From IMG/VR virus record IMGVR_UViG_2778261454_000001: a stretch of DNA of 6,255 nt; one strand, 5' to 3'. Made by a program: the position numbers and the translations under genes. Each line of letters starts with the position of its first letter. The stretch's first letter is position 1. The notes beneath the pieces were generated by a model, which worked only from the letters and a program-made list of their open reading frames with translations, searched no databases and was not told the origin of the DNA. The stretch comes from a virus (lineage: Duplodnaviria; Heunggongvirae; Uroviricota; Caudoviricetes). Below, in pieces: positions 315 through 2,433 of this stretch.

Positions 315-1286
315 ATGGGATTCTTTGATGTATTTGGTACTGACAATATTCAATATAGTCCAGTACAGACTATTAGCATTAACTCTAAGTACCAATTTAC
401 AGAAGAAGATGCTGATGCCATCAATGGTATTTTAGATTTAGATGATCGTCTAACTGATACGTTAAATGATGCTGTAGCAATTGCCAATAACAATACAAGT
501 ACTGTAATCAGTCAATCCGAAACCCGTACAAACGATAAGATTACGGCATCCGAACAAACATTAAGTACTCAAATCGCAGATGTTGATAGTTCGCTAAGTC
601 AACGATTAACTACAGTCGAAAGTACAGCCAATGGAAACAAATCAAGTATTCAGACACTATCACAAACAGTAACAAATAATAACACTGCTCAAACTCAAGC
701 AGTAACACAGTTACGTAGTGATGTTAATGGGCAGATAGCAACGGTTAATAGCCAGATGGCTACTAAAGCAACGGCAAGTACTGTAGATGCTCAATACTCA
801 TTATCAGTTAATGCTAATGGTACGGTCGCGGGTATTCGTCTAGTTGCTTCAAGTGGTACTAGTACTAACTCAGCACTATATGTTGCTGCTAACAAGTTTA
901 TCGTTTCAGGTACTGATACTGCTACGGTTGGCGGTACTGCTCCATTTGCGATTGTTAACGGTACTACGTATATTAAAACGGCGATGATACAGCAAGGCAG
1001 TTTAGGTTCTGCTTATATAGCTGATGCCGCTATTACCAATTTAAAGTTGGCTAATGGCTCAGTCAATACTTTAAAAGTAGTTGATGGTAGTATTACCACA
1101 GCTAAGATTGCCAATACAATACAAAGTAATAACTATGTAGCAAATACTTCAGGTTGGCAGATTAACAAAGCTGGTACTTTCTACATTAACGGTAGTGGCG
1201 GTACAGGTAGAATGGTAATCAGTAATAATATAATTCAGATATATGATAACAATAACGTGTTACGTGTACGTATGGGATTATGGTAA
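315..1286 (+). CDS. Phage tail fibre / host-specificity protein, C-terminal region (frame is open upstream to 93 with no in-frame start codon)
   Basis: Frame 3 runs from 93 to TAA 1284-1286. The first ATG (315) has no Shine-Dalgarno-like sequence upstream. Translation is S/T/N/G/A-rich: a Thr/Gln-rich helical-looking stretch (…[25 protein letters not shown]…) then repetitive beta-like segments (…[30 protein letters not shown]…[18 protein letters not shown]…) of the kind I associate with phage tail-fibre / lambda J-type C-terminal domains. Assignment is by recollection, not search. Confidence 0.65.
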
Positions 1287-1294
1287 TAAATATC

Positions 1295-1322
1295 ATAGGG
1301 GATCGGTATGCCAATCCCCTAT
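1295..1322. promoter_or_regulatory. Stem-loop (9-bp stem ATAGGGGAT / ATCCCCTAT, 10-nt loop) between the fibre gene and the next ORF; overlaps palindrome CCTATATATAGG (1318..1329)
   Basis: Inverted repeat read directly from the sequence. No T-tract follows, so it is not a canonical intrinsic terminator. It lies just upstream of the AGGA ribosome-binding site of the 1339 ORF. Confidence 0.4.
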
Positions 1323-1338
1323 ATATAGGAATAATAAA

Positions 1339-1473
1339 ATGAATATCAAACAATCTACCAATTACAAATATAAAAGTACTGTAGTAAGTCCTACACGCAT
1401 TGTCATTACTCAAAAACATATTGAAGTATACGATTCAGAAGGGAAGCTAAGGGTACGTATGAATAAGGATTAA
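1339..1473 (+). CDS. Small protein (44 aa) whose C-terminus repeats the fibre C-terminal motif
   Basis: ATG 1339 is preceded by AGGA (1327-1330) at 8-nt spacing. C-terminus RIVITQKHIEVYDSEGKLRVRMNKD parallels the fibre C-terminus [25 protein letters not shown]. The longer ORF in the track (1243..) overlaps the fibre gene, so the internal ATG is preferred. Confidence 0.5.
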   Translation: MNIKQSTNYKYKSTVVSPTRIVITQKHIEVYDSEGKLRVRMNKD

Positions 1474-1475
1474 CT

Positions 1476-1775
1476 ATGGCACAAGGTTTACAATGCTGGA
1501 ATGGTTCCGGCGTACTTGTTGTAGATCTCACAGATTACAATATACGTTATATGGGTACATATAATATCAACGTATCTTCAAGTACTGCTACATATACCGT
1601 TACAGTACCAAATATGAAAACTACAGGATGGTTCGTACATTACGCCCCAGCGTCAGATAATTTTAATGATTGGTCTGCTTACTGTAACAATGGATCTTTC
1701 ACAGCTATCTATCTACCTGGCAATTTCCCCCCCGCTGGTACAGTTGCCTTTAACGTATATAAATGGGCGGCTTAA
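1476..1775 (+). CDS. Tail-fibre-associated small protein (99 aa), putative adhesin or assembly factor
   Basis: AAGGA (1465-1469) sits 6 nt upstream of ATG 1476, which lies 2 nt after the preceding stop. N-terminus MAQGLQCWNGSGVLVVDLTD resembles the start of the next protein and the fibre C-terminal motif. Rich in Y/W/N/G/T with 2 Cys. Confidence 0.55.
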   Translation: MAQGLQCWNGSGVLVVDLTDYNIRYMGTYNINVSSSTATYTVTVPNMKTTGWFVHYAPASDNFNDWSAYCNNGSFTAIYLPGNFPPAGTVAFNVYKWAA

Positions 1776-1776
1776 T

Positions 1777-2433
1777 ATGTCAGGTTTTGAAGTTTATAAT
1801 TCAGCAGGTGCTTTAACCATAGATAGTACTAACAAATCAATTATGACTGGTGGTGTAAAAGCTATGGGTACATTAACTGATCAAGGCTACTACACTGGTA
1901 TTACTTGTGCCTTTGGTAATGGTGGTGCTCTTGGTTTCTTGAATAGTAATGTAATTGTTAATAGAAACACTACCCAATATTGGTTTCAATTACAAACAGA
2001 TGGTGCCTGGTGTTTTCCTGGTGCTTATCTCTTTATGCCTAATTCTGGTCGATTCATAACAAGCACACATACAGCTACGCCTACTTCTGGTTATCTGGAT
2101 GTATTCAATGCTTCCGGTACTCTTATATGGTCTGCTGCTAGTGCTGCTACTATGCCCCGTATAGTTGGGTTCTTATCGGCTGGTGCTGGCGTAGATCTAT
2201 CTAGTGTAGTTACGGTTACTTCTCCGGTTGCTAATCCGTGGTTTTGTTGGTCACAGTGTCCGGGTAACGTTTCTGATGATGGGACAGTACTAGGTTATTC
2301 AGGGATAGTAATCAAACGTAATTCCAGTACTTCATTTAGTTTTCAGTACATTAATAAACTACAAAGATCATATACTCAGGCAATGGGTAATAATGGTATT
2401 CAGATTGCTTTGGCAACTTTTACCGGATACTAA
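1777..2433 (+). CDS. Putative receptor-binding adhesin / tail-fibre tip or assembly protein (218 aa)
   Basis: ATG 1777 lies 1 nt after the stop at 1773-1775; the track ORF 1666..2433 overlaps the previous gene, so the internal Met is preferred. N-terminus MSGFEVYNSAGALTIDST, with the motif repeated internally (GYLDVFNASGTLIW). Gly/aromatic/Cys-rich composition (…GITCAFGNGG…GAWCFPGAY…NPWFCWSQCPGN…). Confidence 0.6.
   Translation: MSGFEVYNSAGALTIDSTNKSIMTGGVKAMGTLTDQGYYTGITCAFGNGGALGFLNSNVIVNRNTTQYWFQLQTDGAWCFPGAYLFMPNSGRFITSTHTATPTSGYLDVFNASGTLIWSAASAATMPRIVGFLSAGAGVDLSSVVTVTSPVANPWFCWSQCPGNVSDDGTVLGYSGIVIKRNSSTSFSFQYINKLQRSYTQAMGNNGIQIALATFTGY

Follow-up and report, generated by a model that had tools for sequence, protein, structure and literature searches.

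The question raised by the 6,255-nucleotide (nt) sequence analysed here, a complete Escherichia coli contig (IMGVR_UViG_2778261454_000001, hereafter the window), is how a separate receptor-binding protein (RBP) is held at the tip of a phage central tail fibre. In the window, the 3′ part of a lambda-J-like fibre gene is followed on the same strand by three small genes coding for proteins of 44, 99 and 218 amino acids (aa), and an earlier note on this DNA had pointed to a motif of about 20 residues shared by the fibre C-terminus and these proteins, which were suggested to dock on the fibre through a fibre-like strand. To our knowledge, multimer models are the only proposals made so far for the attachment of separate RBPs to J-like central fibres. 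The fibre ends themselves are missing from the T1 and phi24B maps.

The region 123-2433 is interpreted here, with somewhat better than even confidence, as the distal end of a trimeric lambda-J-like fibre together with separate proteins sitting on its tip by means of docking hairpins. This interpretation is built on homology, synteny, strict co-occurrence, the pattern of conservation, the limits of the cassette and similarity of fold. The three small proteins differ in kind: the first copies the fibre end, the second is a small beta-sandwich protein, and the third is a probable receptor binder. A tip architecture of this kind has been recognised only recently, and the locus represents a new member of it in an uncharacterised prophage disrupted by an insertion sequence (IS). 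A hairpin signature common to the fibre end and the tip proteins and a selected mini-gene copying the fibre end go beyond the cited literature, to the extent of its available parts.

The central fibre and the recurrent hairpin

The genes and motif copies concerned are the following.

123..1286, plus strand: lambda-J-like central tail fibre gene, 3′ part (387 codons and the stop codon), with the 5′ side cut by IS3
1209..1283, plus strand: fibre-end motif, the last 25 J residues, nearly invariant in about 100 loci possessing the 99-aa/218-aa pair
1339..1473, plus strand: 44-aa gene, a miniature fibre-end copy (mini-J-tip protein), identified by hhalign to the J C-terminus
1396..1470, plus strand: motif copy in the 44-aa protein, RIVITQKHIEVYDSEGKLRVRMNKD, found with the fibre-end model (E = 6.3e-7)
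1476..1775, plus strand: 99-aa small beta-sandwich protein of the tip module
1476..1556, plus strand: conserved N-terminal motif of the 99-aa protein, residues 1-27, starting with MAQGLQCWNGSGVLVVDLTD; G4, W8, D20 and R24 are invariant
1777..2433, plus strand: 218-aa DUF8377 protein, probable RBP
1777..1827, plus strand: conserved N-terminal motif of the 218-aa protein, MSGFEVYNSAGALTIDS, with a column entropy of 0.62 bits (residues 1-17)
2086..2160, plus strand: internal motif of the 218-aa protein, SGYLDVFNASGTLIWSAASAATMPR, residues 104-128, with a column entropy of 0.60 bits

The fibre matches the Pfam family PF09327 (Phage_Tail_Tip) with 77 bits at a curated cut-off of 22 (E = 1.5e-21) and the PHROG families of tail fibre and central tail fiber J, and its relatives in the PDB are 9ze4_N (“Tip attachment protein J”) and T1 gp33 (9l9p_S), the latter with the distal third unresolved. 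In the related locus L024, the DNA of which is 92.5% identical to the window from position 121 on, J is uninterrupted, its open frame running to 1100 codons. Intact J proteins in relatives contain 1067-1101 aa and are encoded downstream of a DUF6950 gene and minor tail genes, in keeping with a J-like fibre gene, which is expected to follow tail-tip assembly genes and to code for about 1000-1200 aa at full length. The J-like proteins of the roughly 100 loci all end in ...LRVRMGL[WF] or, in a few cases, LRVRLGLW, and the last 25 fibre residues have a column entropy of 0.69 bits, compared with 1.15 bits in the fibre upstream of them.

All five peptides quoted in the earlier note (the ends of the fibre and of the 44-aa protein, the starts of the 99-aa and 218-aa proteins and the internal segment of the latter) lie where it had placed them. 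Their resemblance exceeds chance, strongly for the fibre end and the 44-aa protein and clearly for the 99-aa and 218-aa N-termini, and stays weak for the internal copy and for the fibre end compared with the two larger proteins. The fibre end and the 44-aa end share 11 of 25 residues with a Smith-Waterman score of 56, against 20.8 ± 3.8 in 5000 shuffles, none of which reached 56. A hidden Markov model (HMM) of the last 25 fibre residues from the related loci finds the 44-aa open reading frame (ORF) among 13,334 ORF segments (E = 6.3e-7), and a profile of 15 mini-proteins aligned with the last 56 fibre residues in hhalign gives P = 1.4e-12 over 42 columns with one 14-residue deletion. The DNA of these two ends is identical at 37 of 75 positions and at 9 of 25 third codon positions, which bears out the earlier view that the similarity is one of protein and the DNA has diverged.

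The N-termini of the 99-aa and 218-aa proteins possess hairpins of one type, G-h-x-h-aromatic-N/D-x-x-G-x-h (h, hydrophobic). They align in hhalign with P = 1.3e-5, a score that none of 150 column shuffles reached, and with HMMs of either N-terminus the other family gives the best non-self matches (E from 2.6e-4 to 0.04). The internal copy of the 218-aa protein, with the core GYLDVFNASGTLIW at 2089-2130, resembles the 99-aa N-terminus weakly (P = 0.022; 2 of 150 shuffles reach the score). The fibre end aligns with the N-termini of the 99-aa and 218-aa proteins with P = 0.004 and 0.007, respectively (0 of 200 shuffles each), and the 44-aa family bridges the two groups, with P = 1.4e-12 to the fibre and P = 3.8e-4 to the 218-aa N-terminus. 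Judged from the sequences, the links within the fibre/44-aa pair and between the 99-aa and 218-aa N-termini are solid, and the link between the pairs is weak but reproducible. The motif has two origins: the 44-aa copy comes from a J end, and the 99-aa and 218-aa proteins carry related N-terminal hairpins, with an additional internal one in the 218-aa protein.

In each family the motif segments are the most conserved parts (column entropy 0.6-0.8 against 1.25-1.8 bits). Residues 1-27 of the 99-aa protein have an entropy of 0.83 bits and the rest of it 1.82 bits; in the 218-aa protein, segments other than residues 1-17 (0.62 bits) and 104-128 (0.60 bits) have 1.25-1.51 bits. The hairpins are the constant parts of otherwise variable 99-aa and 218-aa proteins.

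The 99-aa and 218-aa proteins

The 218-aa protein has a precomputed assignment to Pfam PF28254 (DUF8377), which covers the window protein and all its relatives, and matches phrog_4524 with E = 4.1e-58; phrog_2427 touches both the 99-aa and the 218-aa proteins. For the 99-aa protein, the small protein in cassettes of the HK022/T1 type is a homologue (P = 1.6e-6). The family profile of the 99-aa protein (1476-1772) gives weak, non-significant matches to antibody heavy-chain variable domains (E about 0.05) over W-x-G...Y-x-x-x-F-x-G-R, which agrees with the “Ig-like” (immunoglobulin-like) description in the literature. Searches of PDB sequences with the 99-aa and 218-aa profiles returned nothing significant.

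The model of the 218-aa monomer shares its fold with the RBP of phage Oekolampad, a proven receptor binder that recognises LptD; as to sequence homology with RBPs of this fold, the PDB profile search found nothing and hhalign to Rogue1 gp39 gave P = 0.038. The pLDDT score (predicted local distance difference test) falls below 50 at residues 1-7 and 14-19, the sole low-confidence part of the model and yet family-invariant; the N-terminus may thus be disordered in the free monomer, although low model confidence there is not proof of disorder. The internal motif is predicted to form a beta-hairpin with strands 108-110 and 116-119. Among viral models, Foldseek pointed to uncharacterised proteins of My1, an N4-like Acinetobacter phage and Pseudomonas phages, the My1 protein having its gene immediately downstream of one for a fibre that ends similarly. 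In T5-like Pectobacterium phage My1 (L106, 3001-4277), pb4 ends with a J-type hairpin, ...IDIYDENNRLRVRIGKL, and is followed by a 314-aa protein, the predicted fold of which matches the 218-aa model (BFVD J9QM87, E = 2e-3), so the arrangement of a fibre end plus a tip protein crosses phage families. The 218-aa protein was also considered as a tandem of two 99-aa-like domains; the order of secondary-structure elements fits at a 102-residue offset, but no similarity is left without the motif, and paralogy of the two proteins beyond the motif is thus not established. Most likely, the 218-aa protein is the receptor binder and the 99-aa beta-sandwich protein is its partner.

The earlier note had likened the motif to the N-terminal core of Tfa-type tail-fibre assembly chaperones, and a hydrophobic-x-hydrophobic-Y-D/N-x-x-G pattern occurs in Tfa proteins too. 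The small proteins might then help the fibre fold and perhaps stay bound to it, and small genes downstream of a fibre gene are indeed what the Tfa/Caudo_TAP systems (lambda Tfa, P2 gpG, Mu U) look like. The likeness did not extend to the profiles: neither the 44-aa, 99-aa and 218-aa proteins nor the fibre end match Caudo_TAP or another chaperone family in Pfam, NCBIfam or PHROGs at E ≤ 10, a search in which the HMMER filters limit the sensitivity above E of about 0.1. Moreover, the genes follow a central fibre J rather than a side fibre, the predicted fold is different and, for the 218-aa protein, is that of a proven receptor binder, and the phi24B work reports a homologue of the larger protein in virions. 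A Tfa-type function is therefore regarded as highly improbable.

An exchangeable cassette beside the fibre gene

1180..2473, plus strand: extent of the exchangeable cassette, from the DNA identity profile against the relative L108

In the loci examined, the 99-aa/218-aa pair is located directly downstream of the J-like gene, with the exception of IsaakIselin, where it is on the opposite strand. The pair adjoins J in 93 loci from genome and viral collections, and homologues of both proteins adjoin J in HK639, ENT39118, CS01, SG01 and IsaakIselin, being distributed over lambdoid HK639, Hendrixvirinae, Kyungwonvirus and Tempevirinae. The gene for the protein of about 215 aa is always preceded by that for the protein of about 100 aa (about 100 loci). 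Conservation of the small ORFs in related genomes, on which the earlier note had made its proposal depend, was found for the 99-aa and 218-aa genes, which no related locus examined lacks; the 44-aa gene occurs in only some of these loci.

The relative L108 shares the prophage backbone and carries another cassette, as a comparison for cassette swapping proposed in the earlier note might reveal: 1180-2473 is replaced with an unrelated pair coding for 84-aa and 221-aa proteins, and the fibre ends in ...LRVRIGQL. The DNA identity to L108 is 0.73-0.87 at 1060-1179 and 0.82-0.90 from 2474 on, and 0.27-0.55 between them except at 1412-1471. The final 35 codons of the fibre gene, the 44-aa gene and the two genes of the pair all fall in the swapped block, so the exchangeable unit takes in the fibre C-terminus, and the fibre-end motif sits within it. 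Since some 35 residues at the fibre C-terminus move as one unit with the small genes, a swap of receptor specificity leaves the fibre end matched to its tip proteins. A receptor-specificity locus downstream of gpJ is known from Drexlerviridae, Dhillonvirus, Queuovirinae and Hendrixvirinae (PMC8594841; bioRxiv 10.64898/2026.04.02.716166), and the GpJ C-terminal tip has been reported as a specificity-associated feature (bioRxiv 10.64898/2026.04.02.716166); exchange of the last 35 fibre codons fits the association of GpJ tip and receptor class reported there. The J-adjacent pair, the L108 swap and the published locus support the modular receptor-recognition cassette beside a central fibre which the earlier note had envisaged.

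The locus most similar to that of the window is of the YncD type. For IsaakIselin (Bas10) the receptor is YncD (Maffei et al. 2021, PMC8594841), and YncD dependence is known only for this phage and a few relatives. Its proteins of about 100 and 215 aa are 31.6% and 39.3% identical to those of the window over essentially the full length; the J-like fibre likewise ends in ...VLRVRMGL[WF], and the exchange is likewise cassette-like. Unlike that T1-like phage, the host of the window cassette belongs to an uncharacterised Enterobacteriaceae prophage lineage with 35% GC, has the extra 44-aa J-end copy between J and the pair, and lacks a lipoprotein-type exclusion gene after the pair. The 218-aa protein might accordingly recognise YncD by homology, although at 39% identity the receptor may differ.

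A three-part tip with the same gene order as in the window is described by Matusiak et al. 2025 (PMC12309495), where a “knife-like” tail-spike end, a small Ig-like protein and a “hand-like” protein of about 23 kDa are distinguished and AlphaFold2 (AF2)-multimer places both proteins on the tip, and likewise in the phi24B study (bioRxiv 10.64898/2026.04.10.717836), which attributes the extra tip density on the gp56 needle to a gp54 + gp55 heterodimer and reports gp54 in virions. HK106 has a cassette of the knife/hand type; its J is 40% identical to the window fibre over the C-terminal 110 or so residues, and the small proteins of the two cassette types are homologous. The two papers rest on multimer modelling and low-resolution density, and neither, in its accessible parts, speaks of a hairpin motif in common or of a mini-gene copied from the J end. 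The pooled motif HMM gives matches at the N-terminus of HK106 gp21 (9.0 bits) and inside gp22 (8.5 bits), against a background of only 5 matches at that level in 752,000 residues. Among cassette classes other than the YncD type, the motif was detected objectively only in the HK022/T1 type, and the larger proteins of these two types have no significant sequence similarity.

The first hypothesis of PMC12309495 leads to another reading of the pair, in which the 99-aa protein is a homotrimeric Ig-like cap resembling the fused C-terminal domain of lambda J, and the 99-aa and 218-aa proteins are alternative tips of two virion subpopulations. AF2-multimer homotrimer models on the fibre end are given there, and the 99-aa gene overlaps the J stop in most loci, as would be the case for a split-off domain. 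On the other side, the same work scores its models higher when the larger protein is placed terminally, the two genes always co-occur, and the phi24B tip density is small and asymmetric. Alternative tips seem quite improbable to us.

The Oekolampad RBP-LptDE complex (PDB 9rpt chain C; bioRxiv 10.1101/2025.07.07.663478) differs in several respects: sequence identity is 5%, the receptor is different, the RBP is a single protein with no small partner, and the J end differs, that of related Rogue1 being ...GGRVVVGVW.

Proposed docking of the tip proteins

Docking via a fibre-like strand, as the earlier note had it, is plausible. The fibre C-terminus would form a conserved beta-hairpin, and the N-terminal hairpins of the tip proteins, perhaps the internal one too, would join the hairpins at the end of the trimeric fibre by pairing with them or extending them. 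The closest model by analogy for how such a tip module might work is T5 pb5 on pb4, likewise a monomeric receptor binder on a trimeric central fibre, in which the N-terminal segment of pb5 is disordered when free and has been proposed to acquire a beta-structure continuing the fibre (bioRxiv 10.1101/2022.09.22.509047). In the same manner the hairpins would extend or cap the beta-structure of the fibre end, which would let an asymmetric module attach to a three-fold fibre, and the 218-aa protein would then bind an outer-membrane protein, possibly YncD. Physical docking, its stoichiometry and the role of the 44-aa protein are what we infer from the data presented.

Several observations weigh against this interpretation. 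The fibre end is weakly linked to the 99-aa and 218-aa proteins (P 0.004-0.007), HMMER finds no such link (E ≥ 0.9), and shuffling of columns makes a lenient null whenever two beta-hairpins are compared. The YncD-type motif HMMs find nothing in the LptD-type (Rogue1), My1, UKE3 and L108 proteins, in which the motif is visible by eye only. Outside the motif, the 99-aa protein and the C-terminal half of the 218-aa protein align with P = 0.27, a score that 82 of 150 shuffles reach. The internal copy of the 218-aa protein lies in a folded domain (pLDDT 73-81) and, going by the model, may be purely structural. Finally, the fibre gene is broken by IS3, and no functional tail can come from the window copy.

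The main rival explanation takes the motif as a generic beta-hairpin of all-beta phage adhesin modules with no docking role, the attachment being made by other surfaces. It would account for the cross-family similarity being short and weak (11-19 columns, P 0.004-0.02), for HMMs of one class missing the motif in the LptD-type, My1 and UKE3 proteins, and for the internal copy being an integral hairpin of the predicted 218-aa fold. It does not predict that the motif segments are the most conserved ones in each family, that the N-terminal copy of the 218-aa protein lies outside the confident fold, that the best local profile alignment between families is always at the motif positions, or that the fibre end co-segregates with the cassette. 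A generic hairpin seems unlikely to us, and it is kept alive because the link between fibre and tip proteins is weak and HMMs do not detect the motif in the LptD-type, My1, UKE3 and L108 proteins.

If the docking interpretation is correct, the short, conserved and partly fibre-like N-terminal hairpin is a concrete, mutable docking element. The boundary 35 codons before the fibre stop provides a rule for the cut site in re-targeting phages or tailocins, and in annotation a role can be assigned to DUF8377 and its unnamed partner of about 100 aa.

The 44-aa gene and the junction between J and the 99-aa gene

1294..1323, plus strand: stable hairpin just 3′ of the fibre stop codon, with a fold energy of -17 kcal/mol

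The gene for the protein of about 100 aa overlaps the J stop with its start in most phages; the prophage lineage of the window instead has a hairpin 3′ of the stop. It is followed either by a spacer of 45-50 nt or by an insert of 157-259 nt containing a small ORF with its own Shine-Dalgarno sequence. The counterpart hairpin in relatives with the short spacer has a T run next to it, and no T run follows the window hairpin on the plus strand. Inserts with ORFs copying the fibre end code for the 44-aa protein in the window, L024, L025, L027 and L009, for 43 aa in L042 and for 59 aa in L048; the 44-aa family comprises 10 clusters in the protein collection, to which remote members of 37 and 49 aa can be added. 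The gene is absent from L010 and L026, which are nearly identical to L009 and L024, respectively.

The 44-aa ORF could be an untranslated scar of cassette exchange by recombination in the conserved J 3′ end. It is derived from the J end with an internal deletion and lies exactly at the cassette junction, near-identical relatives do without it, and gene calls for some related contigs omit it, all of which would be expected of a scar. A scar would hardly have an ATG preceded by AGGA 9 nt upstream, nor would the 44-codon frame be kept in all four DNA variants with an excess of synonymous changes (dN/dS, the ratio of nonsynonymous to synonymous rates, 0.14-0.55). Between the window and L027, 15 of 29 changes are synonymous (P = 1.6e-4), and the two most divergent pairs give P = 1.6e-4 and 9e-5. 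Compared with L109 and L108, the proportion of synonymous differences (pS) is 0.65-0.72 and that of nonsynonymous differences (pN) 0.10-0.21 (0.65 and 0.10 for L109), so the peptide is kept with synonymous sites near saturation. Independent small ORFs with the same motif in L042 and L048 and the presence of a 44-aa gene before each of two unrelated cassettes also speak against a scar, which is rather doubtful in our judgement. We conclude that the 44-aa gene is real, dispensable and derived from a J 3′ end; the alignments trace it to the last 56 or so J codons, and it is now a separate gene under selection.

Our best guess is that the 44-aa protein serves as a chaperone or a placeholder for the docking hairpins, and the mini-gene, if translated, would be a new kind of accessory factor in tip assembly. 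A more specific reading, which can be offered only tentatively and is on balance improbable, unites it with the tip proteins: the 44-aa protein would mimic the fibre tip, as the first such mimic to be described, and bind the docking hairpins of the RBPs as a chaperone, placeholder or regulator of tip assembly, and the 99-aa and 218-aa hairpins would make a pseudo-threefold layer in which three hairpins, coming from a single copy of each protein, fit an asymmetric heterodimer to three J chains. Judged by eye, a count of exactly three hairpins in every module is ambiguous when all cassette classes are taken together.

The 3′ part of the gene (1412-1471) is 75% identical to L108 and is the sole conserved island in the swapped region, which could reflect a recombination joint or selection on the peptide. 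The 44-aa sequence, MNIKQSTNYKYKST..., contains neither a hydrophobic leader nor a cysteine when checked against exclusion lipoproteins of the Cor/Llp type, and genes for such lipoproteins are separate ones in IsaakIselin, HK106 and SLUR29. In some public gene calls the ORF is lengthened to 76 aa (1243-1473) by starting at an ATG that lies in the fibre end's +1 frame, likely an annotation artefact. A frameshift extension of J was considered and rejected, since stop codons interrupt the upstream extension in L009 and L027 and leave no read-through from J into the 44-aa frame. An exhaustive search with the 44-aa protein gave the large proteins P0144-P0146 as the top ones, which were discarded as repetitive proteins with piled-up chance matches.

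The junction between the J stop and the gene for the protein of about 100 aa (equivalent to 1287-1475 in the window) is hypervariable; the ORFs of 35-62 aa located there, each preceded by a Shine-Dalgarno sequence of its own, fall into at least six families (L029/L030/L050, L039/L044/L066/L067, L042, L048 and L051/L064/L068). Some of them copy the fibre end and others are unrelated, for example, an acidic protein of about 62 aa starting with MYQFIYNSDHQIMGL.

The host prophage and neighbouring genes

Positions 1-122 are identical to the IS3 end in 3,590 complete E. coli genomes, and the final 75 or so bases of the contig (6179-6255) match another IS end, which we take to be the left end of IS3. 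An assembly break at the IS repeat is probably the cause of both contig ends. Searched as DNA, phage and plasmid collections and the set of complete E. coli genomes returned only the IS ends and a short match in the holin region. The core of 6 kb between the IS ends has a GC content of 34.8%, and the prophage lineage is present in E. coli, Enterobacter, Pluralibacter, Scandinavium and others. Since IS3 interrupts the J-like fibre gene, the prophage copy in the window is defective.

The ORF in the region 2474-2786 lies just outside the swapped cassette, is conserved and adjoins both cassette types; the equivalent ORF in L008 and L109 gives a weak DUF2730 match. Next comes a strong bidirectional terminator (2752-2786). 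The region 2790-3726 contains a phage lysozyme gene on the minus strand and a gene coding for a SegE-like GIY-YIG endonuclease on the plus strand, and the absence of the whole block from L109 suggests an insertion associated with the homing endonuclease. A 370-aa DUF3800 protein is encoded at 4936-6060 on the minus strand and also in L108; other genes take its place in L006, L009 and L109, which marks a variable region near the prophage end.

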